Source: a virus (taxonomy: Duplodnaviria; Heunggongvirae; Uroviricota; Caudoviricetes). Taken from it: a DNA stretch of 17,225 bases. The notes under the pieces were generated by a model, which was given only the letters and a program-made list of their open reading frames with translations, was not told where the DNA came from and ran no database searches. The stretch lies in the IMG/VR virus record IMGVR_UViG_2537561992_000019. One strand, 5' to 3'. The position numbers and the translations under genes are program-made. Below, one piece after another: positions 535 through 17,225 of the stretch; position 1 is the stretch's first letter, and each line of letters opens with the position of its first letter.

Positions 535-630
535 AAGAAATGAAAAAAGGCCACGCAGTTGCGCAGCCTGATAAACCCTGGTTAAAATCCACACGATAAC
601 AACACAACAATATCAGTATCTCATGCTATT

Positions 631-655
631 GCCCGAACCCATTCGGGCATTTTTT
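631..655 (+). terminator. rho-independent terminator-like hairpin (GCCCGAA-CCCA-TTCGGGC followed by T6)
   Basis: GC-rich stem with T-run on the plus strand; forms a back-to-back pair with the minus-strand hairpin at 661..684. Confidence 0.45.
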
Positions 656-660
656 ACCCA

Positions 661-684
661 TAAAAAGCCCCTCCGGAGAGGGGC
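661..684 (-). terminator. rho-independent terminator-like hairpin (GCCCCTC-TCCG-GAGGGGC followed by U5 on the minus strand)
   Basis: A-run 662..666 on plus gives the U-tract on minus; sits downstream of the TerB-like/membrane gene pair. Confidence 0.5.
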
Positions 685-808
685 ATGTTTGCATGCACAT
701 TCTTTTTCTTGTATGGTGCCGGGTGCCTCCCGGTGAATTCAGTATCAGCACCTAAATCCGCGATTATCCCATATACCTGGTTGCTGATCGCCCTCCGCAC
801 AGGGGGAT

Positions 809-1018
809 TCACCATGCAGAAGTGTTTTTAATAAACAGCAAACAAAAAAACCAAGCATTATGCAGGCTGTTTCTTTTTATCACCGGCCACAGCAATACCA
901 CAATGCCGCAGACCAGCACCCCATCCGCCAGCACCGACATGATTCTGCTGGTGAAATCCACCATCACCACCAGAAACAGCAGGAGTGCAGCCACAGCCAG
1001 GCGCAGTTTTACCGTCAC
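809..1018 (-). CDS. small predicted membrane protein, 69 aa, two hydrophobic helices
   Basis: GTG at 1018..1016 overlaps the TerB-like stop (GTGA). Hydrophobic stretches LRLAVAALLLFLVVMV and GVLVCGIVVLLWPVI. Alternative ATG start at 964. Could be a non-coding tail. Confidence 0.35.
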   Translation of the reverse strand: MTVKLRLAVAALLLFLVVMVDFTSRIMSVLADGVLVCGIVVLLWPVIKRNSLHNAWFFCLLFIKNTSAW

Positions 1019-1792: not shown

Positions 1793-1868
1793 TGGTGGCC
1801 CTTGCTGGATTTGAACCAGCGACCTGGCGATTATGAGTCGCTCGCTCTCACCACTGAGCTAAAGGGCC
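1793..1868 (-). tRNA. tRNA with CAU anticodon, 76 nt (Ile2/lysidine type by recalled similarity to E. coli ileX; Met not excluded)
   Basis: Acceptor stem GGCCCTT/AAGGGCC, anticodon loop CTCATAA, T-arm GCTGG-TTCAAAT-CCAGC, encoded CCA end. Confidence 0.85.
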
Positions 1869-4182: not shown

Positions 4183-4544
4183 TCACTCTCAATTTTGTAA
4201 ATCTTCACGCCCAGCCGCCCACCAGGAACGAGCTGACCGCGCACAATATTGATTTCATCAAACTGCTCGTCGTCTATGAGAAGTCCGGCATGCGTCAACG
4301 CATCCAGTGGTGCTTTCAGGATATTGTCCAGGTCACGGCGGCGCTTATCCGGTGGTTCTGCAATAATTTTTATTGCCAACCTTCCGGACAGGCTTAATTT
4401 CAGCCGCTGCTGGCGAACAATAAGCGCCACTGCCCGGCGATAACGCTCCCCGGCTTTTGATACAAAATATGTGCTGCCACGACGACGCCAGTAAGTGTTC
4501 ACCGTTGGCGGGTAAGGCAAAACAAATTCTATGCGTTCAGTCAT
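4179..4544 (-). CDS. rusA: Holliday-junction resolvase RusA, 121 aa
   Basis: N-terminal FVLPYPPTVNTYWRRRG matches the RusA family signature (recalled); stop overlaps the Q start. Confidence 0.85.
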   Translation of the reverse strand: MTERIEFVLPYPPTVNTYWRRRGSTYFVSKAGERYRRAVALIVRQQRLKLSLSGRLAIKIIAEPPDKRRRDLDNILKAPLDALTHAGLLIDDEQFDEINIVRGQLVPGGRLGVKIYKIESE

Positions 4545-5600
4545 TTATGCTTTCCACTTCAGAACACCCGAATTTCTCGCGTGCATTAAAAAACGAATCA
4601 GCAACAACAGCTGGCTGCCGTGTTTTTCTTCAAAATCTTTTACCCCGGCGTGTAGTTCGCTATGGCATTTACGGCACAGCGGAATAACAAACAAATCATC
4701 AGCCTTTGTTCCCATCCCTCCCAGTCCATGACCAATGATGTGATGCGGATCATCTGCCTGATTACCGCACGTCATGCATTTCTGCGTTTTTACCCAGCGC
4801 GTGTATACAGGCATCTCTTCCCGTTGTGATTTCTGGCGCTGGAGATACTGAGCCGGTGACTCGGGATCAACGGCAATGCTGACCACCGTCTTTTCCTGTG
4901 GCGGGTTTTGCTGGTGGGCGTGAGGCAGCGGCGCAAGATTTTTTGTGCGCTGCTTCAGTATGATGGTGGCGGTCTGCTCTCCCGGTACGATGTCGCTTTC
5001 ACGGTACATTGAGCGGATTTTTTCCGCACGCAACCCCAGCGAACGACGTAATACCGCTTCCGGTAGCGCGTCCGCCACCTGATTGCGGACCGCCCACCAG
5101 GATAATTCAGCCAGCGATAATTCCCGTTCCTGCGAGCCATTCATTGCATGGCGTATGACGTCAATCATCCATGCAGACAGGTTTTGGTGAGCAAGTTGCC
5201 CGAGTGATTCGGAGGTCTGGTCGCGCAGCTGGTTGTCGCAGTGCCAGCACAACACCATTGCGCCGGTACCATAACGGTGAATGACGGTTTCACTGTGGTG
5301 ATAATCACCGTGTGGCCACTGGCAGGATTTAACATGGCGCAGTAACCAGTCAGACAATGCGCCAGCGCCACCAGCAGCACGAATCACTCGTTCGTCGCTG
5401 AAAAATGGCAGTAATGATTTATCCTCCGCCAGCGGCTGGCGAACGGCAGGAACGACCCCGGACGGCAGATTACGCATGCTTTTCGGTTCCGGCTCCACCA
5501 GTACCCGGGTATTGTGGAATACCGGCATGGATTCACGGCCCGGCTTAACGATCACCAGCCCGAGTTCCGGTACCAGAACAGGTCGAAGTAATACCCGCAC
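4545..5600 (-). CDS. ydfU: DUF968-family protein (YdfU-like) with C-terminal HNH/zinc-finger-like motif, about 351 aa
   Basis: C-terminus CMTCGN...HHIIGHG...CRKCH is HNH-like. Size and position match YdfU of Qin (recalled). Start uncertain: GTG 5600 or ATG 5525. Confidence 0.65.
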   Translation of the reverse strand: MRVLLRPVLVPELGLVIVKPGRESMPVFHNTRVLVEPEPKSMRNLPSGVVPAVRQPLAEDKSLLPFFSDERVIRAAGGAGALSDWLLRHVKSCQWPHGDYHHSETVIHRYGTGAMVLCWHCDNQLRDQTSESLGQLAHQNLSAWMIDVIRHAMNGSQERELSLAELSWWAVRNQVADALPEAVLRRSLGLRAEKIRSMYRESDIVPGEQTATIILKQRTKNLAPLPHAHQQNPPQEKTVVSIAVDPESPAQYLQRQKSQREEMPVYTRWVKTQKCMTCGNQADDPHHIIGHGLGGMGTKADDLFVIPLCRKCHSELHAGVKDFEEKHGSQLLLLIRFLMHARNSGVLKWKA

Positions 5601-5601
5601 G

Positions 5602-5880
5602 TTACCTCCAGATGCGTTGCTGGAATGTGCGGGACGGACGCGGTGGTCGTTCGGAGTAAGGAAGCCTGACGGAGATTATCCAGTGACGATAATCGAGGCT
5701 GAGGGCTTTCTTAATCTCGTATCCGTGTCTGCGGTAGCACTGAATTAGCCACTCGGCCTGTTCTTCAGTGCATGGGGGATGCTGGAACCAGTCAGATTTG
5801 AAAGTGCGGGAACGCCGCCCGTGCCTGCTGGCAGGGGCGGCAGAGTTATCCGAATTGTAAAATTTGGTATCGTGCGCCAT
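5602..5880 (-). CDS. rem: Rem-like small protein, 92 aa
   Basis: ATG at 5880..5878 (MAHDTKFYNSDNS); sits between the DUF968 gene and hok as rem does in Qin (recalled). Confidence 0.5.
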   Translation of the reverse strand: MAHDTKFYNSDNSAAPASRHGRRSRTFKSDWFQHPPCTEEQAEWLIQCYRRHGYEIKKALSLDYRHWIISVRLPYSERPPRPSRTFQQRIWR

Positions 5881-5950
5881 CTGTTTTCTCTGCTGGCGCA
5901 GCAGGTGCCAGTTGTTCAGGCTGACGGATGGATTGTAAACCAGAACGACC

Positions 5951-5979
5951 AGAAAAAACAAAACCCGCCGAAGCGGGTT
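5951..5979 (-). terminator. rho-independent terminator at the 3' end of the hok transcript
   Basis: Minus-strand hairpin AACCCGC-UUCG-GCGGGUU followed by UUUGUUUUUUCU. Confidence 0.55.
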
Positions 5980-6047
5980 AAGTGCGGGTGCGTTGAGGAT
6001 GCCTGACACATCAGCGGTGGCGAGGGATTTCTCCCCCGCCTGGTCTC

Positions 6048-6203
6048 TTACTCCTCAGGTTCGTAAGCTGTGAAGACAGCGACCTCCGTCTGGCCGGTTC
6101 GGATTCGTACCTCGCAGAGGTCTTTCCTCGTTACCAGTGCCGTCACTATGACGGTTAAACAGATGACGATCAGGGCGATTAACATCGCCTTTTGCTGCTT
6201 CAT
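6048..6203 (-). CDS. hokD: Hok-family type I toxin, 51 aa
   Basis: MKQQKAMLIALIVICLTVIVTALVTRKDLCEVRIRTGQTEVAVFTAYEPEE matches HokD/RelF as I recall it; ATG at 6203..6201 with AGGAGA Shine-Dalgarno. Confidence 0.9.
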   Translation of the reverse strand: MKQQKAMLIALIVICLTVIVTALVTRKDLCEVRIRTGQTEVAVFTAYEPEE

Positions 6204-6375
6204 AACCTGCTTCTCCTTGCCTTTCGGCGCGTAAGAGGCTAACCTACGTTTGTGAAGCATAGATTGGGCCTCAGATTAATGTTAAGCGTCTTGCAGGACG
6301 CGTAATGTTAACTGGGGCTTTTCTCTGTCTGCCTTACGGTGGCATGCCCGAGGCAGACAGCCTCAAGCACCCGCA
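6204..6375 (-). promoter_or_regulatory. hok mRNA 5' leader, including a mok-like in-frame start at 6260
   Basis: 5' end sequence UGCGGGUGCUUGAGGCUGUCUGCCUC resembles the 5' end of plasmid R1 hok mRNA (recalled) and is complementary to the 3' end at 5983..5998. Confidence 0.5.
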
Positions 6376-6378
6376 GCA

Positions 6379-6406
6379 ATTCTACTTAACTCTCGCTTTA
6401 CAGCAA
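6379..6406 (-). promoter_or_regulatory. candidate sigma-70 promoter of hok mRNA (-35 TTGCTG, 16-nt spacer, -10 TAGAAT)
   Basis: Hexamers read on the minus strand, correctly placed 5-7 nt upstream of the inferred 5' end. Confidence 0.4.
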
Positions 6407-6446
6407 ACCGTTTTGCCCGATATGGGAATTCCCATACGGAATGAAT

Positions 6447-6551
6447 TCAGTTCCCCAGGCGCTCCATCAAAAACACAACCAGGCAGTAAACACCCACAAC
6501 AGCAATAACAGCCAGAGCGCCTTCCATTACCAGTGAAATATCATCCGACAT
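6447..6551 (-). CDS. 34-aa hydrophobic peptide (MSDDISLVMEGALAVIAVVGVYCLVVFLMERLGN)
   Basis: ATG at 6551..6549 preceded by GGGAGGG at ideal spacing; single predicted transmembrane helix. Below the ORF-track size cutoff. Confidence 0.4.
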   Translation of the reverse strand: MSDDISLVMEGALAVIAVVGVYCLVVFLMERLGN

Positions 6552-6660
6552 ATTCCCTCCCTTGGTGTGAATCCCGGCGAACGTTTTTACCCCCACCGAC
6601 AAATAACATATACTAGAAAAGCAATAGCTATAGCAACGCCTGCAAATGCATCTGGCCGGC

Positions 6661-7224
6661 TCATTGGTTCTCCCCCTGTGTCGCTTCTACTGCGATCTGA
6701 CTGGCGTATTCGTTAATGGTAACGATAAGTTCTTGCTCGGCCTCATCCAGACAACTACCGATACCTCGCCTGTCCACTTCAGAAGCATCGAAATCTGCAC
6801 GAAGCCTGGCGACCTTCAGGATTGCGGACAACACCTCATCAGGGATTGCCGGAGAGTTGGTTGACGTTTCCGAGATTATCCGAAAATTATTGGTTGACGA
6901 ACCCTTATTTTCCCGAAAGTTTCCAGCCTGAAGCATGGCGGCGCGGTGACACCAGATAATCCAGCCAAGCGCCATATCCCATGCCATGTATTCTCTATCG
7001 CCATTTTTTGCTCTGCGGCGATCTACAGATTCCCCGAAACGCTTCTCCATAAATAATTCATAGGCTGCCCGTTCATCCGATACTGATGCCAGTGATGCCA
7101 GTGCAATTTTTAATGCGGTAAGCATGTTGTTTTGATCTTCATCGAGTCCGAACGGTATTTCATCCCGTGATGACTCAATTCCGGTAATCGTGTACTGTAG
7201 CCATTCTTTGGTTAATTCAGTCAT
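6661..7224 (-). CDS. hypothetical protein, 187 aa, acidic, predicted helical
   Basis: ATG at 7224..7222; GC hairpin ACCGCCC-TTTC-GGGCGGT at 7234..7251 just upstream. No recognisable motif. Confidence 0.6.
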   Translation of the reverse strand: MTELTKEWLQYTITGIESSRDEIPFGLDEDQNNMLTALKIALASLASVSDERAAYELFMEKRFGESVDRRRAKNGDREYMAWDMALGWIIWCHRAAMLQAGNFRENKGSSTNNFRIISETSTNSPAIPDEVLSAILKVARLRADFDASEVDRRGIGSCLDEAEQELIVTINEYASQIAVEATQGENQ

Positions 7225-7350
7225 TTTTCACTACCGCCCTTTCGGGCGGTCTCCTGATGTTCTGAGGGTGCAGGAATCCCTCCGGTTAAGGATTTAATAA
7301 AAATCATTTCTGATTTAAATTTTCAGTGTTTAGTTGTTGGTTTATAGCCT

Positions 7351-7662
7351 TTATGCTTCGGCCTTATTTCTCAGCCATACACAAACAGGACCATCTTCGG
7401 TGTCATGTATCGAACCGATAAACCATCCCTCACCTTCTGGTCGCTCAGGTTCCCATGCTGAAATATCAGGGCCATCTGCGTCCAGATTAAAATCATCTTC
7501 ATCCATACTACGGATAGCCCACTGAAGATTATTTTTCTCCATCCAGGCGTTAAACTCTTCCGTTGAAATATATTCCCGACCATCACAGAATTTTTCATAT
7601 TCAGGATGCGTCCAGCAGCCATATTCATTACGTTCCACTGGCATTTCTTTAATTGCGCTCAT
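7351..7662 (-). CDS. hypothetical acidic protein, 103 aa
   Basis: ATG at 7662..7660 preceded by AAGGGGGG; ATGA overlap with the upstream gene stop. Confidence 0.6.
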   Translation of the reverse strand: MSAIKEMPVERNEYGCWTHPEYEKFCDGREYISTEEFNAWMEKNNLQWAIRSMDEDDFNLDADGPDISAWEPERPEGEGWFIGSIHDTEDGPVCVWLRNKAEA

Positions 7663-7847
7663 TTACCCCCCTTATTTAATTTTCTACGACACTTTTTACA
7701 ATCATCTGGACTTTCGAATGTATCCGGCTCACGCTCATTGCCAAAATACATCCACCCACCGCAAGTACTTGTTATTTCACCTTCAGCAAAATAATGATGC
7801 TTTTTCGCCATAAGTGGCCTTGCCCAGCCCGGATTCGTTTTACTCAC
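7659..7847 (-). CDS. hypothetical small Cys/His-containing protein, 62 aa (GTG 7847) or 50 aa (ATG 7811)
   Basis: CGG...CKKC plus HH residues suggest possible metal binding; overlaps both neighbours. Confidence 0.5.
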   Translation of the reverse strand: MSKTNPGWARPLMAKKHHYFAEGEITSTCGGWMYFGNEREPDTFESPDDCKKCRRKLNKGGK

Positions 7848-8200
7848 TTGTTGCCTCCTTTGCGAAGCTCTGCGACTAACTCGTCACATATGTGCGTCAA
7901 AGAGCAAAGTTTGATTGCTGGATGTTCGCGCACCATCTCCACACCCTGCGCCCGCAATTCTGCCAGAAAAGCGTAGGGGTCAGTTTTTTCACTGTGGTAC
8001 ATGGCATCATAGATAATCATTGCAGCGACACCTGCCTGTCCTGCATCTGTGACGGATATATGCTCAAGGGCTACGGCCATTGCGTGTTTCAACCTCTCAT
8101 TTTCCACCTCAAGCACCACACGATTAGCCTCCAGCTCTTCTATGCGTTTTTTTGCTGCTCCCAGCTCAACACGCAGCTCCTGATAGTTAATCTCGCTCAT
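7844..8200 (-). CDS. hypothetical protein, 118 aa, N-terminal coiled-coil-like segment
   Basis: ATG at 8200..8198 preceded by GGGAGGAAGGAGA; heptad-like LRVELGAAKKRIEELEANRVVLEVENERLK. Confidence 0.6.
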   Translation of the reverse strand: MSEINYQELRVELGAAKKRIEELEANRVVLEVENERLKHAMAVALEHISVTDAGQAGVAAMIIYDAMYHSEKTDPYAFLAELRAQGVEMVREHPAIKLCSLTHICDELVAELRKGGNK

Positions 8201-8421
8201 TCTCCTTCCTCCCGCACTGCTGTTTTATATGCCCGAAGCACATGCGATGTTTTTCCTGACACAGTGCTTCTCAGAAAGAAAATTCCACTGGTGTTTATTA
8301 CCAGATACGGGTCAGCAAGACGCAGCATATCCAGTATGTGATTATGTTTTCTTGTTTCCAGCACCGTACTGGAAATAAGCATATGTGACACGGGGCCGAA
8401 ATCATGATATCTGATTTTCAT
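8197..8421 (-). CDS. hypothetical protein, 74 aa
   Basis: ATG at 8421..8419; stop overlaps the downstream start (ATGA). No motif recognised. Confidence 0.5.
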   Translation of the reverse strand: MKIRYHDFGPVSHMLISSTVLETRKHNHILDMLRLADPYLVINTSGIFFLRSTVSGKTSHVLRAYKTAVREEGE

Positions 8422-8442
8422 ATCATCACCCTGCTGTAAAAA

Positions 8443-9141
8443 TTACCCGTTATCTCCTGTCGTTATTTTCTGTATGACATCACGATGCTTATTAATTTCC
8501 CGCAGCGCGGCGCATAAGCGCTCCCACTTCTGAACCTGACCTTTTGCCCGGCGCAGCTCGCGGTTAGCCACATGCAGCGATGGTAAAATCAGACCATCCG
8601 GATGCTTTCTGATGAACGACGACTGTGACTGCACTGTGACCGCCACACTTTCAGTTTTAATTTCTTCCTGTGTTTCCGCTTCCCGGACTGGTAACGCAAC
8701 ACCTGCCGGCTGAGGAAAGGCTTTACCATCGGTTTCCGTTACCGATGCAGCTTTCGGCTCTGCCGGTAAATTATCGCCCGGTATGCAGTAACGATATTGA
8801 CCGTCCTGATTTACGCGAATCAGACGACCTTTGCTGACAGCCATCGCCAGTGATGAATTCGCCCGGCGGGAGGTAATCCCGAACATTAACGCCAGTTCGT
8901 CAGCCGACTGAGGACCATGCTGTTCAATCGCGTTAATCAGCATCTCTGCAGTGGTTTTTGGGGCCGCTTCAGTTGCCTCACTCGTCAGCCACCACATCGA
9001 CCCCTTGTTATCAGCTTCGCCACGACGCTTCAGCTTCCAGAGTTCGGTAACAGCATCGTCACGGCTGATTTCAAGACGGGCTGCAATCTCGTGCGACGAG
9101 GCTTTTTTCAGTGCTTTCAGTGCGTCAAAAACGGTTTCCAT
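8443..9141 (-). CDS. hypothetical phage protein, 232 aa, with two winged-helix-like segments (possibly DUF1627-like)
   Basis: ATG at 9141..9139 preceded by GGGAGG; the track ORF starts 22 codons upstream without a Shine-Dalgarno. Confidence 0.6.
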
Positions 9142-9175
9142 TAAATTTTCCTCCCGGTAAAAATTACTTCTCAAC

Positions 9176-9838
9176 TCAGACAAAACCGGCCGCCTTCCGG
9201 CGCTCATATTCCTGTTTCAGCAATTCAATTGGCGTTGGCCCTGGCGGGCGTTTGGGTGCTGCCAGTTGTCGCCGGACTGGCGGAACACTGAGGCCATTAC
9301 CAACATGCTTTGCCCATTTCGTCAGCTGCCTTTCCACAAGCCGTTTTAACTCCCCTTCGGTCATCTGGCGCTCAATCCCCTTTGAACGCATCTCGAGGCA
9401 AATGTGGTACAGCACCGGCTGTGGCCACGGGTATTTATCACTCCCGTCGTACCGCCAGGATTCATTCCTCCAGCGACGGTATTCCTCCATCACGGCATCC
9501 ACCGTCAGGCCAAATGGATTTGCCCCGCTCTCCGAAATCAACGCCACAAACTCAGCCAGATCCGGAGGCCACGTTTCACCCGCCCGGCAGCGGTCCATGC
9601 ACCGACGGCAGATCTGCCGGATTTGCTGTTCAGTCATCGCGCCAATCTGAGCAATCCAGAGTTTCGACGGCGCAGCCCCGTTCTTCTGAGTCCAGCGGTT
9701 CGAATACACCTCCCCCATAAGCTCCCACAGCTTCCAGGCCGTTTCCGTTGCTGATAAATCCGTTTTCACGTTCCCACTGTTCGCGTGCAGCCCGGATTTC
9801 CTGAACTGCCCGTGATGCGGTGCCACCTGGTGCTGCAT
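9176..9838 (-). CDS. replication protein P-like (helicase loader), up to 220 aa
   Basis: C-terminal half resembles lambda P as I recall it ([17 protein letters not shown] vs ESYPWKSNAHYWLVTNLY). ATG 9838 has AGGGGG upstream; alternative starts at 9718 and 9637. Confidence 0.65.
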
Positions 9839-10667
9839 GGCTTACCCCCTTGCTGACTGGTTTTACCTGTGCCCTGACGTGCTGCACGTGGCGGGCAAAT
9901 TTCTGCTCCCACTGAACCTGCGTGAAAACCTTCCCCTCCGCCATCCAGTAATCCCGGAATGCGGCAAGCTCAGCAGGTGTAAACTCAGGCTCAGGCAGAG
10001 CCATACCCCACACTGCTGCCCGCTGTCGAAAATCCGGCGACGGTTGCCAGACTCCAGTCATCGGAAATTTCCCGATCGGTTCGCTCAGGCCGTCCAGGTA
10101 TTCAGGTTCGGCTGTCTGCAACGACGCGTCATTCAACTCACCGGTCGTAGCACTCTCGCGCATGCGCGCGTTATGTGTGGGGTTTAATTCTTTATCTGTA
10201 TCTGTATCTGTCGTGATTTGTCGTGACATATGCGTGACGCGTCGTGACTCATCGTGACAATCAGTGTTCTGCTTCCGCAGTCTTTCCCGCTCCCGCTGCG
10301 CTCTCTTGCGCTCTGCCGGGGATTTTGCGGTTTGCGAAACATTACCGTTATCCTCCTTCATCACCTGGCGTTTTTCCCATCCGGAAATAAGATCACCATC
10401 CAGAACTCGCCCCTGCATTGCATGCAAAATTGAATCAATCACGTCTTCCGTCACATCAAGCGCACTTGCTAAATCTTCCGTCGTGACATCAATGTGACCA
10501 CGTAGTGACACGCCGTGACATGTCGTGACATTTCGTGACGCACTCACCAGAAGGTGGATATACACCGCCATCACTGTTGCGATTGGCTGTCCTGAGACCC
10601 TGGCAATGGTTCGCCATTTGGGATCATTTGGCATGTCATGCCACAATCTGAGCCAGGCATTAGCCAT
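9630..10667 (-). CDS. replication initiator O-like protein, 345 aa, with origin iterons inside the coding sequence
   Basis: ATG at 10667..10665 preceded by GAGGTGA; two internal GTGAC iteron arrays; immediately upstream of the P-like gene. Confidence 0.7.
   Translation of the reverse strand: MANAWLRLWHDMPNDPKWRTIARVSGQPIATVMAVYIHLLVSASRNVTTCHGVSLRGHIDVTTEDLASALDVTEDVIDSILHAMQGRVLDGDLISGWEKRQVMKEDNGNVSQTAKSPAERKRAQRERERLRKQNTDCHDESRRVTHMSRQITTDTDTDKELNPTHNARMRESATTGELNDASLQTAEPEYLDGLSEPIGKFPMTGVWQPSPDFRQRAAVWGMALPEPEFTPAELAAFRDYWMAEGKVFTQVQWEQKFARHVQHVRAQVKPVSKGVSHAAPGGTASRAVQEIRAAREQWERENGFISNGNGLEAVGAYGGGVFEPLDSEERGCAVETLDCSDWRDD
10211..10258. repeat. iteron array A: five (T)CGTGA(C/T) repeats at 10-11 bp spacing, next to an (ATCTGT)x3 tract at 10194..10210
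   Basis: Repeat starts at 10211, 10221, 10232, 10242 and 10252, read directly. Confidence 0.6.
10483..10539. repeat. iteron array B: six GTGAC repeats at 10-11 bp spacing
   Basis: GTGAC at 10483, 10494, 10505, 10515, 10525 and 10535, read directly. Confidence 0.6.
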
Positions 10668-10735
10668 ACTCACCTCATCTGATACCGAACTTTACCCTCG
10701 AACATCCGGAATAAATCCGGCATGAATATTGTTGG

Positions 10736-11161
10736 TCAATGCACGACAACAGCATTACCAGGCTGACCACCACTGTTAGTCAGGGTGCCCCAGGCGATCG
10801 CCGCTGCGACAAAATCATCCACATCTTTCACCAGCCGATCCCTCCGTTCGACGATCTCACGGTAATATTCAGAGCTGTGACTGCGCATACGGGCCACCAG
10901 CAGAGGCGGCATTGCCTTTTCGATCGCCGGTAACAGAGCCTGAATTTTTTCAACAGCATCAGGGGTGTCTTTATCCAGCCAACGGAAAATTTTCTGGGTA
11001 TTACGAGCCAGGGCTTCCGGATGGCTGTCGTCGTACAGTTCCGGGAACGTCATCCCCAGCTCGAAATAAGTCCGGGCTATTTCAGCTGCAGGAACTTTCT
11101 CACCGTCCGGATAGGCCCAGGCATTGATCGCCATGCGGATGTGCTCATGTTTGATTTTCAT
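10736..11161 (-). CDS. YdaT-like protein at the cII position, 141 aa
   Basis: Starts MKIKHEHI...; its ATG overlaps the stop of the cro 3' fragment (ATGA). Family call is from recollection. Confidence 0.5.
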   Translation of the reverse strand: MKIKHEHIRMAINAWAYPDGEKVPAAEIARTYFELGMTFPELYDDSHPEALARNTQKIFRWLDKDTPDAVEKIQALLPAIEKAMPPLLVARMRSHSSEYYREIVERRDRLVKDVDDFVAAAIAWGTLTNSGGQPGNAVVVH

Positions 11162-11307
11162 GAATCCCCCTTTCCTTCGCCCTGAGTGGTATCCTTCTTT
11201 TTGTAAAGTTCTGGGTTCAAAGATAATTTCCCCTTGGAGTATGCAGCAGCTTCCGCAGCCCTCCCCTTCGGAACTATTTCACCAGGACGCTTACGCCACA
11301 TGTAAAT
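11161..11307 (-). pseudogene. cro: cro-like gene, 3' fragment (48 codons plus the duplicated ATT codon)
   Basis: Joins in frame with the 5' fragment at 13535..13615 once the IS and inverted segment are removed. Confidence 0.7.
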
Positions 11308-11350
11308 TGAGGTGTACTGGCAATAGCGGACACTACCATTTGTTCTTTTT

Positions 11351-12255
11351 TTAAGCAGCCATCTGATGATATTTTTCCCTGAAGGCTGCCGGGGAGATAT
11401 TCCCCAGACGAGAGTGACGACGCTGACGATTGTAGAAAATCTCAATGTATTCCCGTATTACTGAGATGGCTTCATCCCGGTTATTAAAACGATAGTGGCT
11501 CAGGCTCTCATTTTTCAGCGTTCCCCAGAAGCTTTCCATCGGAGCGTTGTCGTAACAGTTACCTTTACGCGACATTGATGTTTTCAGACCAAACTGCTCC
11601 TGTATGACCCGGTAATCGTATGCGCAGTACTGTGAACCTCGATCAGAGTGGTGGATTAGCCCGGCAGGTGGGCGCTGGCTCCTGAGCGCCATAAACAGAG
11701 CTTTACCTGTCAGCTCTTTTGTCATGCGCTCTCCCATGGCGTAGCCGACAATTTCGCACGTATAAACATCTTTGATGCCAGCGAGGTACAACCATCCCTC
11801 CTGTGTGGCAACATACGTCAGGTCCGCCACCCAGACCTGATTTGGTGCTGTAGGAGCGAACGTCTGGTTCAGCAGATTTGGCGCAACTGGCAGATTGTGG
11901 TTCGAGTTCGTAGTCGCTCTGAACTTGCGTTTCTGCTTACAGCGTAGCCTTAGCTCCTTACGAAGACGTGCCAGTCGGTCACGACCAACGATGATGCCAT
12001 TCTCTGCCAGCTCCGTCTGGAGCCGCCGGGTTCCATATGTTTCGCGAGTGCGGATATGTGCCACCTTAATCTCCAGTTTTAGCCGCTCATCACTTTGTTT
12101 CTGTCTGAGGGTTCATGCTGTACCCAGTTGTAATAACCGCTCCTGGATACACCAAATACCTGACACATCGCTTCAATGGGAAATTGTTGTCGCCATTGTT
12201 CGATTAACGCGTATTTTTCAGCGACTCCTGTGCAAAATACGCTGTTGCTTTTTTT
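11351..12255 (-). pseudogene. IS3-family transposase orfB, frameshifted by a 1-bp deletion
   Basis: TTT at 12098..12100 where copy 2 has AAAA at 14086..14089, truncating the OrfAB frame. Confidence 0.7.
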
Positions 12256-12506
12256 AATATATCTCGCTCAAGGCGAGCTTCATTTAACGCCTTACGCAGT
12301 TGCAGAATTTCAGATTCCAGTTCAGCCACCGTGCGGGAACCAGGAGTACCGAGCCCTTTTCTGGCGGCGGTAACCCATTGTCCTAAAGTGCCTTCAGGAA
12401 GAGATAATCGGGAAGCGCCTTCACTGATCGAAAGTTGATTTTCAAGAACCGTTCTGACAGCTTCGGCTTTGAACTCTTTAGAGTAACGTTGGGTTTTTCT
12501 GCTCAT
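12204..12506 (-). CDS. IS3-family transposase OrfA, 100 aa
   Basis: Protein identical to OrfA of copy 2; HTH-containing N-terminal transposase part. Confidence 0.85.
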   Translation of the reverse strand: MSRKTQRYSKEFKAEAVRTVLENQLSISEGASRLSLPEGTLGQWVTAARKGLGTPGSRTVAELESEILQLRKALNEARLERDILKKATAYFAQESLKNTR

Positions 12507-12698
12507 TATTAGCTCCTTCTGATGCCATTCTATTTCAGGAAGGAGTGTCCGTTAAACTCAGGCTACCTCACTGTTATACAAAGTGTTCCCGCCGTCATGT
12601 TCATACGCCTCGGGCTGGCTACTTAACCCCTGACCACTGCCGGGTAACTCGAGGTATTGCCCGACGTTCTGTGGGGCGAGGTAGGGTGGTATGTAATA

Positions 12699-12727
12699 AA
12701 TCTAAAAGTATTTAGTTTTTCAGTCAA
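12699..12727 (-). promoter_or_regulatory. candidate PL-like promoter (-35 TTGACT, 17-nt spacer, -10 TAGATT) with overlapping operator 12700..12717
   Basis: Hexamers read on the minus strand; operator ATCTAA-N6-TTAGTT overlaps the -10; palindrome AATCTAGATT at 12732..12741. Confidence 0.4.
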
Positions 12728-12746
12728 GATAAATCTAGATTAATTT

Positions 12747-12772
12747 AAAAAAAAGGTCGGCATTGCCGACCT
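12747..12772 (-). terminator. rho-independent terminator directly after the cI stop
   Basis: Hairpin GGTCGGC-ATT-GCCGACC followed by U8 on the minus strand. Confidence 0.6.
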
Positions 12773-12792
12773 CAAGTAAAGGACGTGGCGGG

Positions 12793-13440
12793 TTATAAGT
12801 TGAACTGTACACCTTTTGCTACGGCAACAATTTTACACTCTGGTGTAAGTAAGGATGACTGATAGCGTGGATTGAGAGGGCTTAAATACACAAGCTTCCC
12901 ATCAATAACTAATTTCTTTATAGTCATAGATGGTTCATTTTTAAGCGGATCCGGAACTATTACAGCGACGATGCTGCCATTTTTATAACTTTCTCCTGGC
13001 CTTAGGATCACAGTAGCACCAACTGGGATACTCGGTGATCCTGATGGGTTATGCATTGTGTCATCAGGCATTGAAACGGCAAAATCACCTTCCTCGACAT
13101 CAAAGAATGTGGTGATCCTATCGACATTTCCCATTGTTTTCTCTCCTTTTAAGATTAGGAAAGAAATCGCCTCACCCCACGAAAGGTAGGGGATCTTGGT
13201 GCCTGAGGTACTTTGTACAAAAGATAATTCAGGAGACGATACTCCATATAGGAGATAGGACTCAGTAGTTCCTAATGCCTGGGCTAACTTACTTAGAGCT
13301 TTGCTACCTGGTTCGTTTAGATCTTTCTCCCAGTACCCTATAGTAACCCCAGTCACGCCTGAAAGCTTACCCAGTTCTACTTGGGTCAGCCCCTTATCTT
13401 TTCTAAGTCTCTTAAGCCTGATGCCAAGGCTTTCCATCAT
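12793..13440 (-). CDS. cI: CI-like prophage repressor, 215 aa (N-terminal HTH, C-terminal LexA-like S24 peptidase)
   Basis: ATG at 13440..13438 preceded by AGGAGAAA. HTH LTQVELGKLSGVTGVTIGYWE; S24 region with Ser in AVSM and Lys in TIKKL, resembling lambda CI (recalled). Confidence 0.85.
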   Translation of the reverse strand: MMESLGIRLKRLRKDKGLTQVELGKLSGVTGVTIGYWEKDLNEPGSKALSKLAQALGTTESYLLYGVSSPELSFVQSTSGTKIPYLSWGEAISFLILKGEKTMGNVDRITTFFDVEEGDFAVSMPDDTMHNPSGSPSIPVGATVILRPGESYKNGSIVAVIVPDPLKNEPSMTIKKLVIDGKLVYLSPLNPRYQSSLLTPECKIVAVAKGVQFNL

Positions 13441-13479
13441 TTTCTCCTGCAAATTGAATATAAATTATTTTAGATTGCA

Positions 13480-13522
13480 TTGACCTAAAAAAAATTATCT
13501 TGTAATCTAAAAATACTTAGAT
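13480..13522 (+). promoter_or_regulatory. candidate PR-like promoter (-35 TTGACC, 17-nt spacer, -10 TAATCT) with perfect operator ATCTAA-N6-TTAGAT at 13505..13522
   Basis: Read directly; drives the cro fragment, which has AGGAGG Shine-Dalgarno and ATG at 13535. Confidence 0.45.
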
Positions 13523-13534
13523 TTAGGAGGTAAA

Positions 13535-13615
13535 ATGCGAGTTGATGAACTTGTCCAGTTTTTTGGTTCTGTTCAGAGGGTTGCCGATTTTTATGGGATA
13601 ACCCGCGAAGCTATT
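13535..13615 (+). pseudogene. cro: cro-like gene, 5' fragment (27 codons), truncated by the IS insertion
   Basis: MRVDELVQFFGSVQRVADFYGITREAI; the next codon is TGA supplied by the first bases of the IS. Confidence 0.7.
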
Positions 13616-13679
13616 TGAGGTAGCCTGAGTTTAACGGACACTCCTTCCTGAAATAGAATGGCATCAGAAGGAGCTAATA

Positions 13680-13982
13680 ATGAGCAGAAAAACCCAACGT
13701 TACTCTAAAGAGTTCAAAGCCGAAGCTGTCAGAACGGTTCTTGAAAATCAACTTTCGATCAGTGAAGGCGCTTCCCGATTATCTCTTCCTGAAGGCACTT
13801 TAGGACAATGGGTTACCGCCGCCAGAAAAGGGCTCGGTACTCCTGGTTCCCGCACGGTGGCTGAACTGGAATCTGAAATTCTGCAACTGCGTAAGGCGTT
13901 AAATGAAGCTCGCCTTGAGCGAGATATATTAAAAAAAGCAACAGCGTATTTTGCACAGGAGTCGCTGAAAAATACGCGTTAA
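13680..13982 (+). CDS. IS3-family transposase OrfA, 100 aa
   Basis: ATG at 13680 after GAAGGAG; contains the A7G run at 13931..13938 near its 3' end. Confidence 0.85.
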   Translation: MSRKTQRYSKEFKAEAVRTVLENQLSISEGASRLSLPEGTLGQWVTAARKGLGTPGSRTVAELESEILQLRKALNEARLERDILKKATAYFAQESLKNTR

Positions 13983-14836
13983 TCGAACAATGGCGACAAC
14001 AATTTCCCATTGAAGCGATGTGTCAGGTATTTGGTGTATCCAGGAGCGGTTATTACAACTGGGTACAGCATGAACCCTCAGACAGAAAACAAAGTGATGA
14101 GCGGCTAAAACTGGAGATTAAGGTGGCACATATCCGCACTCGCGAAACATATGGAACCCGGCGGCTCCAGACGGAGCTGGCAGAGAATGGCATCATCGTT
14201 GGTCGTGACCGACTGGCACGTCTTCGTAAGGAGCTAAGGCTACGCTGTAAGCAGAAACGCAAGTTCAGAGCGACTACGAACTCGAACCACAATCTGCCAG
14301 TTGCGCCAAATCTGCTGAACCAGACGTTCGCTCCTACAGCACCAAATCAGGTCTGGGTGGCGGACCTGACGTATGTTGCCACACAGGAGGGATGGTTGTA
14401 CCTCGCTGGCATCAAAGATGTTTATACGTGCGAAATTGTCGGCTACGCCATGGGAGAGCGCATGACAAAAGAGCTGACAGGTAAAGCTCTGTTTATGGCG
14501 CTCAGGAGCCAGCGCCCACCTGCCGGGCTAATCCACCACTCTGATCGAGGTTCACAGTACTGCGCATACGATTACCGGGTCATACAGGAGCAGTTTGGTC
14601 TGAAAACATCAATGTCGCGTAAAGGTAACTGTTACGACAACGCTCCGATGGAAAGCTTCTGGGGAACGCTGAAAAATGAGAGCCTGAGCCACTATCGTTT
14701 TAATAACCGGGATGAAGCCATCTCAGTAATACGGGAATACATTGAGATTTTCTACAATCGTCAGCGTCGTCACTCTCGTCTGGGGAATATCTCCCCGGCA
14801 GCCTTCAGGGAAAAATATCATCAGATGGCTGCTTAA
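13931..14836 (+). CDS. IS3-family transposase orfB segment, expressed as an OrfAB fusion by programmed -1 frameshift
   Basis: The -1 frame is open from the A7G run to the stop at 14836; first in-frame ATG is at 14018. C-terminal half has the IS3-family catalytic region (HSDRGSQY, MSRKGNCYDNAPMESFW). Confidence 0.8.
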   Translation, partial: KKSNSVFCTGVAEKYALIEQWRQQFPIEAMCQVFGVSRSGYYNWVQHEPSDRKQSDERLKLEIKVAHIRTRETYGTRRLQTELAENGIIVGRDRLARLRKELRLRCKQKRKFRATTNSNHNLPVAPNLLNQTFAPTAPNQVWVADLTYVATQEGWLYLAGIKDVYTCEIVGYAMGERMTKELTGKALFMALRSQRPPAGLIHHSDRGSQYCAYDYRVIQEQFGLKTSMSRKGNCYDNAPMESFWGTLKNESLSHYRFNNRDEAISVIREYIEIFYNRQRRHSRLGNISPAAFREKYHQMAA

Positions 14837-14934
14837 AAAAAGAACAAATGGTAGTGTCCGCTATTGCCAGTACACCTCACAGCGCAGCAGGTTTTTAGTT
14901 CCGCGACCCGGCGTTAAGGGTAAATGAGGTCAAC

Positions 14935-15087
14935 ATGGATATGCTCAATCTTGGCAACAATGAATCTCTGGTGTGCGGAGTATTCCCCAACCACGACGGC
15001 ACGTTTACCGCGATGACGTATACCAGAAGTAAAACGTTTAAAACCGAAGCTGGCGCGCATCGCTGGTTAGCAAGAAACGCTAACTGA
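14935..15087 (+). CDS. ydfA: small protein, 50 aa, YdfA/YdaF-like, first gene of the PL-type operon
   Basis: ATG at 14935 after GAGGT; position before dicF/dicB matches ydfA of Qin (recalled). Confidence 0.55.
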   Translation: MDMLNLGNNESLVCGVFPNHDGTFTAMTYTRSKTFKTEAGAHRWLARNAN

Positions 15088-15349
15088 TTAGCGCCAGTAA
15101 AAACAGGTTTCCACAGGTTAATTTACCCTGAAAAGTCAGGGCATAACACGAAAGCGCACGGCGAGATCCCTTTGCATATAAGTCTTGTCGTTAAATTTCT
15201 TCGACCGTGCGCTTCTGGTTGTGGCAATCCGCGAAATGGCGCGGCGGTAAGTATGGCGGGGTTATTCCTTCCCCCATTGAGGACACCGGGTTGTCAGGTT
15301 GACCATACGCTTAAGTGACAACCCCGCTGCAACGCCCTCTGTTATCAAT

Positions 15350-15407
15350 TTTCTGGTGACGTTTGGCGGTATCAGTTTTACTCCGTGACTGCTCTGCCGC
15401 CCTTTTT
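15350..15407 (+). ncRNA. dicF: DicF small RNA (53 nt, 15350..15402) plus its terminator U-tract
   Basis: TTTCTGGTGACGTTTGGCGGTATCAGTTTTACTCCGTGACTGCTCTGCCGCCC followed by TTTTT matches E. coli DicF as I recall it; lies just upstream of dicB. Confidence 0.8.
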
Positions 15408-15576
15408 AAAGTGAATTTTGTGATGCGGTGAATACGGCTAAGCGCACGCGGAACAGTTAAAACCAAAAACAGTGTTATGGGTGGATTCTCTGTATCCGGC
15501 GTTAATTGTTAACTGGTTAACGTCACCTGGAGGCACCAGGCACTGCATCACAAAATTCATTGTTGAGGACGCGATA

Positions 15577-15765
15577 ATGGAAACGTTATTACCAAACGTT
15601 AATACGTCTGAAGGTTGTTTTGAAATTGGTGTCACTATCAGTAACCCTGTATTTACTGAAGATGCCATTAACAAGAGAAAACACGAACGGGAGTTATTAA
15701 ATAAAATATGCATTCTTTCAATGCTGGCCCGTTTACGTCCGATACAAAAAGGATGCTGGCAATGA
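15577..15765 (+). CDS. dicB: cell-division inhibitor DicB, 62 aa
   Basis: METLLPNVNTSEGCFEIGVTISNPVFTEDAINKRK... matches DicB (recalled); GAGGA Shine-Dalgarno. Confidence 0.9.
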   Translation: METLLPNVNTSEGCFEIGVTISNPVFTEDAINKRKHERELLNKICILSMLARLRPIQKGCWQ

Positions 15766-15953
15766 ATACAGCATTTGCACTTGTTCTGACAGTTTTTCTT
15801 GTTTCCGGAGAGCCAGTTGATATTGCAGTCAGTGTTCACAGGACAATGCAGGAGTGTGTGACTGCAGCAACCGAACAGAAAATTCCCGGTAACTGTTACC
15901 CTGTCGATAAAGTTATTCACCAGGATAATAACGAAATCCCGGCAGGTCTTTAA
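15762..15953 (+). CDS. ydfD: YdfD-like small lysis-associated membrane protein, 63 aa
   Basis: MNTAFALVLTVFLVSGEPVDIAVSVHRTMQEC... matches YdfD (recalled); ATG overlaps the dicB stop (ATGA). Confidence 0.8.
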   Translation: MNTAFALVLTVFLVSGEPVDIAVSVHRTMQECVTAATEQKIPGNCYPVDKVIHQDNNEIPAGL

Positions 15954-16045
15954 AACAGTTCCGTAATAAACATCCGATTTCATTCTTATATGCCAGAAAT
16001 GGCAGGGATTTGTTCACCCTTAAATCTGTAATGAGGTAAAACAAA

Positions 16046-16942
16046 ATGAGTAAAGTCTTTATTTGCGCCGCCATTCCGGACGAACAGGCAATAAAGGAAG
16101 AAGGTGCAGTCGCTGTAGCCACTGCCATTGAAGCCGGTGATGAACGTCGCGCCCGCGCAAAATTTCACTGGCAATTCCTGGAACATTATCCGGCTGCTCA
16201 GGACTGCGCTTATAAATTTCTTGTTTGCGAGGATAAACCCGGTATACCCCGCCCTGCCCTCGATTCCTGGGATGCTGAATATATGCAGGAAAACCGCTGG
16301 GATGAGGAGTCTGCTTCCTTTGTCCCGGTTGAGACTGAATCAGATCCGATGAACGTCACTTTTGACAAGCTGGCCCCTGAAGTACAGAACGCTGTCATGG
16401 TTAAGTTCGACACATGTGAAAACATCACCGTTGATATGGTGATTAGCGCGCAGGAATTGTTGCAGGAAGACATGGCAACATTCGACGGACATATCGTTGA
16501 AGCGTTGATGAAAATGCCAGAAGTTAACGCCATGTATCCGGAGCTTAAGCTGCATGCCATCGGGTGGGTTAAGCATAAATGTAAGCCTGGTGCCAAATGG
16601 CCCGAAATTCAGGCAGAGATGCGCATCTGGAAAAAACGTCGCGAAGGTGAACGCAAGGAAACCGGAAAATACACGTCTGTTGTTGATCTCGCCCGCGCCA
16701 GAGCCAATCAACAGAACACTGAAAATTCAACAGGAAAAATCAGCCCGGTCATTGCTGCCACTCATCGCGAATACAAGCAGACATGGAAAACACTGGATGA
16801 CGAACTGGCCTACGCTCTCTGGCCTGGTGATGTGGATGCCGGAAACATTGACGGCAGCATCCATCGCTGGGCAAAAAAAGAAGTTATCGACAACGACCGC
16901 GAAGACTGGAAGCGCAGTCTCAGCAATGCGCAAACAGCCTGA
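16046..16942 (+). CDS. ydfE: YdfE-like hypothetical protein, 298 aa
   Basis: Long acidic ORF directly after ydfD, as in Qin; family call is from recollection. Confidence 0.6.
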   Translation: MSKVFICAAIPDEQAIKEEGAVAVATAIEAGDERRARAKFHWQFLEHYPAAQDCAYKFLVCEDKPGIPRPALDSWDAEYMQENRWDEESASFVPVETESDPMNVTFDKLAPEVQNAVMVKFDTCENITVDMVISAQELLQEDMATFDGHIVEALMKMPEVNAMYPELKLHAIGWVKHKCKPGAKWPEIQAEMRIWKKRREGERKETGKYTSVVDLARARANQQNTENSTGKISPVIAATHREYKQTWKTLDDELAYALWPGDVDAGNIDGSIHRWAKKEVIDNDREDWKRSLSNAQTA

Positions 16943-17225
16943 TGCCCTTCGCTACGACCGCCAGACTATTTTTGGCCTTGTCCGTGAACGTCCGATCGAC
17001 ATTCACAAAGACCCTGTGGCACTGAACAAATACATTACTGAATACCTGACTACAAAGGGCGTGTTTGAAGATGAAGGAAGAAATCAGAGCGCAACTGATA
17101 CTCTCTCGTCGCCAGTACCAGAAACTGATGCAGTGGAAACGGCAATTCCGGACAACGAAAAACCGAATAGCAAAGTGGAAGTCGAACCATCTGTAGAGCG
17201 TGAAGGGCCGTTCTACTTCCTCTTC
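16926..17225 (+). CDS. hypothetical protein, N-terminal 100 codons, runs off the window end
   Basis: ATG at 16926 overlapping the previous gene by 17 nt; 100 codons with no stop. A competing 40-codon frame from ATG 17071 is less likely. Confidence 0.35.
   Translation, partial: MRKQPDALRYDRQTIFGLVRERPIDIHKDPVALNKYITEYLTTKGVFEDEGRNQSATDTLSSPVPETDAVETAIPDNEKPNSKVEVEPSVEREGPFYFLF

Follow-up and report, generated by a model that had tools for sequence, protein, structure and literature searches.

The DNA described here is a stretch of 17,225 nucleotides from a virus of the Caudoviricetes (IMG/VR record IMGVR_UViG_2537561992_000019; the whole stretch is called the window below), which carries a gene for a CI-like repressor with an intergenic control region on either side. 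We find five 18-bp dyads in these two regions and suggest from their sequence and placement, with a probability of about 0.85, that they are the operators of a lambdoid immunity module of the lambda/P22 type. The repressor gene has its own transcript terminator and lies between a leftward promoter (PL) and a divergent rightward promoter (PR) that precedes a cro gene cut short by the insertion sequence IS600. A putative repressor maintenance promoter (PRM) completes the locus:

12727-12699, minus strand: PL, with TTGACT (12727-12722), a 17-bp spacer and TAGATT (12704-12699), from a promoter scan
12773-12753, minus strand: intrinsic terminator of the cI transcript, a 9-bp stem followed by a T-run, from a terminator scan
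12793-13437, minus strand: cI-like repressor gene, 214 amino acids (aa), with HTH_3 and Peptidase_S24-like domains (Pfam)
13462-13457, minus strand: putative −10 hexamer of PRM, TATATT, 20 bp from the cI start codon
13480-13508, plus strand: PR, with TTGACC (13480-85), a 17-bp spacer and TAATCT (13503-08), read from the sequence
13535-13618, plus strand: truncated cro, which starts behind AGGAGG and runs for 27 codons to 13615, after which the end of IS600 contributes a TGA

Probable operator sites around the repressor gene

Three of the dyads make up a right operator (OR) between cI and cro, and two make up a left operator (OL) beyond the cI terminator. Each is given with its mismatches to ATCTAA-N6-TTAGAT and its score under a weight matrix that was built only from 19 sites of other genera (Xenorhabdus, Arsenophonus and Phlomobacter) and then run over the window:

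OR1, 13505-13522, ATCTAA-AAATAC-TTAGAT: perfect, 23.9 bits, the highest score in the window
OR2, 13483-13500, ACCTAA-AAAAAA-TTATCT: three mismatches, 16.8 bits
OR3, 13458-13475, ATATAA-ATTATT-TTAGAT: one mismatch, 23.7 bits
OL1, 12700-12717, ATCTAA-AAGTAT-TTAGTT: one mismatch, 20.1 bits
OL2 (tentative), 12733-12750, ATCTAG-ATTAAT-TTAAAA: three mismatches, 10.5 bits
Next best position, start 13453, overlapping OR3: 9.7 bits

The five sites take ranks 1-5 among the ~17,200 positions scored and no comparable site was found elsewhere in the window, with the reservation that the sites of the other genera had been chosen with a consensus derived from the window, so that the matrix test is not fully independent. 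Centre-to-centre distances are 22 and 25 bp in OR, where OR1 to OR3 span 47 bp, and 33 bp in OL. The invariant core of the operators is TAA-N6-TTA, and the fuller consensus reads A-(T/A)-C-T-A-A-R-N4-Y-T-T-A-G-(A/T)-T. OL2 is located upstream of the −35 hexamer of PL and overlaps the T-run of the cI terminator, and there is no space between OL2 and this terminator for a third OL site.

At up to two mismatches, ATCTAA-N6-TTAGAT occurs exactly three times in the 17,225 bases (12700, 13458 and 13505), where shuffles of the whole window lead one to expect 0.49. At up to three mismatches it occurs six times. Five of these matches fall in the intergenic regions that flank cI, and the remaining one, at 1282, has a background-level score. 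Both intergenic regions are 67-78% A+T. At PL and at the putative PRM the half-site also serves as the −10 hexamer, as TTAGAT followed by T reads as the −10-like TAGATT. The motifs could then be AT-rich palindromes that arose by chance, or ordinary promoter elements, and not sites for a protein. AT-richness was controlled for with 20,000 dinucleotide-preserving shuffles of the two intergenic regions only. With at most one mismatch, three sites are observed and 0.004 expected, and none of the 20,000 shuffles reaches three; with at most three mismatches, five are observed and 0.43 expected, and a single shuffle reaches five. Chance would also have to account for a dyad symmetry, an 18-bp frame, a site number and a spacing that are conserved across genera along with the DNA-binding domain of the repressor, and for the emptiness of the rest of the window, and we consider it very improbable.

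The sites are placed on the promoters as operators would be. PL is the only promoter called at the threshold of the scanner, and its −10 hexamer falls within OL1. OR1 covers the −10 hexamer and start region of PR, and OR2 overlaps its −35 hexamer. The −10 hexamer of the putative PRM lies inside OR3 and is without a good −35 partner, as expected for an activated promoter. An alternative PR that uses the TAGATT at 13518-23 as −10 was rejected, since its start would fall inside the ribosome-binding site of cro.

A sequence-only reading of this region had proposed a perfect site overlapping the −10 of PR and a one-mismatch site overlapping the −10 of PL, and both are found at 13505..13522 and 12700..12717, respectively. 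It had listed in addition a half-site at 13470..13475, whose TTAGAT is indeed present but forms the right half of the full site OR3, and a palindrome at 12732..12741, AATCTAGATT. The palindrome is also present, but relatives read AATCTAAATT at this place and do not keep it as a palindrome, and we reject it as a special site; the conserved unit is the 18-bp site at 12733-12750. Where the sequence-only reading counted two sites plus half-sites, the operators thus comprise five full sites. The motif search across the prophage that it had suggested as a check places the sites in a cluster beside cI, far above background, and its proposal that they are OR and OL operators of the CI-like repressor gains support from position, statistics and conservation alike.

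Conservation of the repressor and its probable operators

The segment that holds cI and all five sites (the cassette, 1,044-1,045 bp) is 100% identical to that of an intact prophage in E. coli O157:H7 strain 493/89. Matches that cover at least 80% of it are present in 474 of 5,426 complete E. coli genomes, and in 345 E. coli records the best match is at least 99% identical. The O157:H7 prophage of this immunity type is inserted beside tRNA-Ser and mtfA, and the intact gene order in 493/89 is int, exonuclease, ydfD, dicB and ydfA leftward, then cI, then cro, ydaT, O and P rightward. In phage vB_EcoS-689R5, which is 92% identical, the sites are unchanged and the sequence between them varies; OL1 and OR3 are invariant, and the change of AATCTAGATT to AATCTAAATT improves the left half of OL2. 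A survey of viral contigs gave 51 loci with 30 distinct OR and 39 distinct OL sequences, which differ mainly between the sites, as half-site variants within the sites are limited to TTAGAT, TTATAT and TTAGTT. The middle OR site is at the same place in all lineages, the hexamers of PL are retained in the 39 OL sequences, and PR is conserved in the relatives. E. coli variants have a second OL site 33-35 bp from OL1 that is a better match than OL2 of the window. As a side observation, the A/T-run spacer of OR2 (equivalent to 13488-13495) has 7, 8 or 9 bases in near-identical relatives (loci L013, L017, L022 and L046), a variation that would alter the half-site spacing unless it reflects homopolymer sequencing error.

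The same arrangement recurs well outside E. coli. CI homologs from Xenorhabdus, Arsenophonus and Phlomobacter are 45-51% identical overall and have an almost unchanged N-terminal domain with the conserved pattern TQVxLGKxxGVTGVTxGYWEKDLNEP…YLLYG, and the Cro proteins of these distant relatives are homologous at 48-53% identity. Upstream of CI, all three genera carry three dyads at intervals of 24-25 bp. Downstream, Xenorhabdus and Arsenophonus have two OL dyads as well, 33-35 bp from one another; a −35 hexamer stands between these two, and the distal half of OL1 contains TAGATT. In Phlomobacter only one OL site was found. The PRM arrangement in Arsenophonus is similar to that proposed here, with TAGATT at the end of OR3. 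The repressors of mEp460 and of a Klebsiella phage are 54-58% identical in the N-terminal domain, and these phages carry the same dyads. A search of 50,697 deposited phage genomes gave just two, both recently induced E. coli prophages, that exceed 60% identity to this DNA-binding domain.

The protein itself is built as a CI/C2-type repressor, with an N-terminal helix-turn-helix (HTH) and a C-terminal LexA/S24-type domain (Pfam E-values of 1.9e-12 for HTH_3 and 5.3e-11 for Peptidase_S24). Across its full length it shares 31% identity with P22 C2, its closest solved structures are those of the C2 N-terminal domain, and its C-terminal domain matches structures determined for that of lambda CI. 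In the recognition-helix region it has TGVTIGYWEKD where C2 has SNVAISQWERS. Its gene and cro diverge from a control region of ~100 bp (cI at 12793-13437 on the minus strand, cro′ from 13535 on the plus strand), the three tandem OR dyads overlap PR and the putative PRM in a layout that is kept in five other lineages, and the OL sites overlap PL on the far side of cI, although there are two of them and not three.

The peptidase region (CI residues ~85-130) departs from the canonical form. The Ala-Gly self-cleavage site is absent, as 'SW---GEA' takes the place of 'SWVSAGQW' in P22 C2 and a 3-residue deletion leaves Trp-Gly, and the catalytic Ser is replaced by Thr ('DDTM' against 'GDSM' in C2) with the Lys retained. 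The combination of an Ala-Gly or Cys-Gly site with a Ser/Lys dyad, by which RecA-stimulated self-cleavage is recognized, is accordingly not found in the sequence. Because of the missing Ala-Gly site and the Thr at the catalytic position, the sequence suggests that inactivation of this repressor by RecA-stimulated autocleavage is doubtful. The version with Thr and without Ala-Gly is common to E. coli and Arsenophonus, and Xenorhabdus keeps the Ser but is also without Ala-Gly.

Several points weigh against the operator reading, in addition to the partial dependence of the matrix test. OL2 is weak in the window, with its 10.5 bits, and drops to 6th under an AT-rich background. The conservation of OR2 is confined to one half-site plus 'TAA' (the TAA...TTAGGT part). 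OR3 scores as high as OR1, unlike the situation in lambda, where OR3 is the weakest CI site. PR matches at 8 of 12 positions, which is under the threshold of the scanner, and its −10 hexamer TAATCT is poor; PRM is putative and was read from the sequence. Neither the literature nor the phage-genome searches gave a characterized phage of this immunity type, and we infer binding, cooperativity, activation of PRM and read-through of IS600. We nevertheless favor operators of a lambdoid immunity module as the explanation of the five dyads.

IS600 insertions and the inverted cassette

The cassette is bracketed by two copies of IS600, and the early genes beyond them are arranged as follows:

11158-11307, minus strand: 3′ remainder of cro, in frame from 11304, with an AAT duplication at 11305-07, followed by ydaT-like and O-like genes
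11308-12570, minus strand: IS600 copy of 1263 bp, with orfB frameshifted by a 1-nt deletion; its left inverted repeat (IRL) abuts the PL leader
12572-12692, minus strand: PL leader of ~115 nt, directly downstream of PL, with the IS600 insertion just after it
13616-14879, plus strand: IS600 copy of 1264 bp, apparently intact and 100% identical to annotated IS600; its IRL abuts cro′
14880-15765, plus strand: former PL operon, now past PR and IS600, with a CAG duplication, a ydfA-like gene (14935-15087), DicF (15351-15402) and dicB (15577-15765)

The assignment to IS600 is based on identity, on the orfA and orfB domains, on the A-run at IS position 316 (an A7 slippery site) and on 3-bp target duplications. 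The copies form inverted repeats around 12571-13615 that differ by one base, a deletion in an A-run that turns GAAAACAAAG of the right copy (14085-14088) into GAAACAAAG of the left copy (12098-12100). The deletion puts orfB out of frame, which leaves the right copy as the sole possible source of a complete OrfAB transposase. In the former PL operon, Pfam finds DUF1391.

The sequence-only reading had spoken of an inversion here, and two lines of comparison bear it out. The 3-bp flanks are AAT-IS-CTG at the left copy and ATT-IS-CAG at the right copy, and they become proper target duplications (AAT…AAT and CAG…CAG) only when 12571-13615 is reversed. BLAST against the intact O157:H7 prophage switches strand at the same boundaries:

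4305-11307: minus-strand match, 96.8%
12571-13616: plus-strand match, 100%
14879-15671: minus-strand match, 90%

The inversion of 12571-13615 is real in the sequence. As the target duplications and the BLAST strands fit only a flipped middle segment, we suggest that two independent insertions of IS600, one in cro and one just past the PL leader, were followed by recombination between the copies, which would have flipped the cassette. The IS600 ends lie outside OL and inside cro, such that OL, cI, PRM, PR, PL and the five sites moved as one block. The intact Cro of relatives has 75 aa, and the protein reconstructed from the two parts matches Pfam P22_Cro; in the window, Cro is cut within its HTH. 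Both PL and PR enter IS600 in the sense direction, and a search of the IS600 sense strand gave no intrinsic terminator.

It could be argued that a faulty assembly produced the inversion, or that the population is mixed and the window shows one of its states, and that the true order is native, with each promoter facing its own operon across IS600. Short reads cannot orient a 1-kb segment between 1.26-kb inverted repeats whose arms differ by one base, and IS-bounded inversions from ~700 bp upward have been reported to vary among Shigella dysenteriae 1 genomes (PMC7819885). The 1-nt difference between the copies, on the other hand, suggests that they were resolved separately, and the presence of both in one continuous 17-kb sequence would point to a finished or long-read assembly. 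A native order is therefore unlikely in our view, if somewhat less so than the other alternatives weighed in this text, and the main conclusion would be unaffected by it, as the operators and cI are linked in either orientation. The cro′::IS600 junction is absent from the 5,426 complete E. coli genomes and from the viral loci that were fetched. The IS600 load might hint at Shigella as the origin, but this is no more than a guess.

The insertions also give some weight to the view that the operators are genuine but relics, in a defective, IS-riddled prophage in which the repressor has ceased to be made or to function and PL and PR are uncontrolled. The disruption of cro, the separation of both early operons from their promoters by IS600 and the non-canonical peptidase region would all fit such decay. 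Against it stand the undamaged cI reading frame, ribosome-binding site, putative PRM and five sites, and the complete identity of the cassette with that of an intact-looking O157:H7 prophage, next to the 345 E. coli records with a best match at 99% or above. The changes in the peptidase region are furthermore common to intact relatives and lie outside the DNA-binding domain. We regard a relic as improbable, and the repressor arm appears to be undamaged.

Two side observations concern the prophage as a whole. Its identity to the intact 493/89 prophage comes in different levels, 100% in the cassette, 96.8% on the side of the PR operon and 88-90% on the dicB/exonuclease side (14879-17224), and this mosaic points to recombination between related prophages. 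Rfam matches in the window, a set that is typical cargo of lambdoid prophages of enterohaemorrhagic E. coli and Shigella, are the following:

594-655, plus strand: AgvB (anti-GcvB small RNA)
656-846, minus strand: STnc100
1619-1692 and 1796-1868, minus strand: two tRNAs
6198-6372, minus strand: sok antitoxin RNA, with a hok-type locus
15351-15402, plus strand: DicF

Comparison with known systems and the expected state of the switch

The closest resemblance is to immC of P22, whose operators we read from the annotated genome BK000583. Both systems have a C2-like repressor, a Cro of Pfam P22_Cro, three sites between the divergent repressor and cro genes, and a maintenance promoter that overlaps OR3. 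Both also have an 18-bp dyad centred between base pairs 9 and 10 (PMC4267663). The P22 sites are ATTTAAG-N4-CTT(T/A)AAT-like, whereas those found here are ATCTAAR-N4-YTTAGAT, which leaves the 18-bp frame and positions 1, 2, 4, 5 and 6 in common. P22 C2 specificity is marked by T at the third and G at the seventh position of each half-site, and these operators follow another pattern: among 38 half-sites of the other genera, position 3 is C in 27, A in 11 and T in none, and a purine (A or G) occupies position 7 in 29. On a 3C operator, binding of the wild-type P22 repressor is merely non-specific and at least 16-fold weaker (PMC4267663). As position 3 is C where the P22 repressor needs T, the immunity specificity would therefore be distinct from that of P22. 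P22 furthermore has OL1-3, against two recognizable OL sites 33 bp apart here, and its C2 has the Ala-Gly cleavage site and catalytic Ser that the CI-like repressor is without.

Lambda shares the order of PL/OL, cI, OR with PRM and PR, and cro. In lambda OR1 to OR3 span 47 bp, the same as here. The operator sequences are unrelated and the lambda sites measure 17 bp instead of 18 bp. The cI mRNA described here carries a Shine-Dalgarno sequence, and the predicted strength of OR3 equals that of OR1, two more differences from lambda. No N gene and no nut sites were recognized in the prophage, and a different conserved leader follows PL instead. With Qin/Kim the likeness is in the PL operon, which in intact relatives is ydfA-(ydfB/C)-dicF-dicB-ydfD as in Qin, and the difference is in the repressor, a short DicA there and a 214-aa CI/C2-type protein with an S24-like domain here; phage records annotated 'dicA' match the N-terminal domain of the CI-like repressor at only 45%. 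Phages mEp460 (L189, mEp460_4F5) and vB_VIPKPNMC05 of Klebsiella (L190) have the GYWEKD helix and CTAA-N6-TTAG dyads upstream of the repressor gene, in mEp460 also downstream of it, and they differ from this prophage in proteins and spacers. Cross-immunity between these two phages and the type described here is possible.

The leader that follows PL is conserved, with matches in 3,440 of the 5,426 complete E. coli genomes. It sits downstream of unrelated repressors (RacR in Rac, DicA-type and CI-type), in Rac, Qin-like phages, an Actinobacillus phage and Arsenophonus, with the same position in Rac, in Qin-like phages and in phage pPE4. The invariant core reads GTAGCCAGCCYGAGGCRTAYGAACATGA, and the 5′ part is rich in C. 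In position the leader corresponds to HK022 putL or lambda nutL; an identification as HK022 put RNA was rejected, since the position fits but there is no BLAST match and a reading of HK022 revealed no convincing similarity. Rfam gives nothing in the leader, and when folded as a single sequence it does not surpass its shuffles (z = +0.87). Consensus structures computed from 16 and 48 sequences reach −5.2 and −4.2 kcal/mol with almost no compensatory pairs, and a scan of viral contigs with 79 distinct leaders gave no significant fold or covariation. We note in passing that mEp460 has a diverged copy of the core, GTAGCCGACGGTGGCGTATGAATGACCGG, and that Arsenophonus-type loci carry the core twice on the same strand, ~1.85 kb apart (L004 at 1123-1157 and 2959-2993; L145 at 176-200 and 2033-2057), with one copy after PL and the other on the cro side reading against PR.

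From the placement of the sites we suggest how the switch would work. Dimers of the CI-like repressor on OR1 and OR2 would occlude the −10 and −35 hexamers of PR, and dimers on OL1 and OL2 would bracket and occlude PL. OR3, which holds the −10 of the putative PRM, would serve negative autoregulation of the repressor, and OR2, which abuts a poor −35 of PRM, may add positive autoregulation of the kind known from lambda and P22. The 75-aa Cro of P22_Cro type would, in intact relatives, compete for the same sites. In the window, control of both promoters should persist despite the inversion, because cI and all operators lie inside the flipped segment. No Cro would be made and the lytic arm would be dead, because Cro is cut within its HTH. 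PL would read through one IS600 copy toward ′cro-ydaT-O-P, and PR through the other toward ydfA-dicF-dicB. The expected state is one of permanent repression of both promoters, which would silence read-through into IS600, the division-inhibitor genes and the replication genes and would also confer immunity to homoimmune phages.

We can further speculate that the IS600-bracketed cassette is a flip-flop that swaps the early operons (dicF/dicB against ydaT-O-P) driven by the CI-controlled promoters and, separately, that CTAA-N6-TTAG together with GYWEKD marks one cross-repressing immunity group of Escherichia/Shigella, Klebsiella, Xenorhabdus and Arsenophonus. We hold this extension to be a long shot. 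If the flip-flop existed, sense transcription of the IS600 transposase would be under CI control in either orientation, and a loss of repression would fire read-through of IS600 and the re-wired toxic genes.

Literature searches for the motif, for names of O157 prophages and for IS600 inversions gave no description of this operator and, on inversions, nothing beyond general accounts of IS-bounded cases in Shigella dysenteriae 1. The operator set is ordinary in kind and previously undescribed, and known principles stand. It provides a testable operator consensus for an immunity type that is found in several hundred complete E. coli genomes, and this consensus helps to predict homoimmunity and cross-repression among co-resident prophages. 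As the difference from the P22 operator is mainly at position 3, a known determinant of P22 specificity, the two form a natural pair for the study of specificity shifts, and the IS600 inversion is an example of an intact repressor cassette with re-wired operons.

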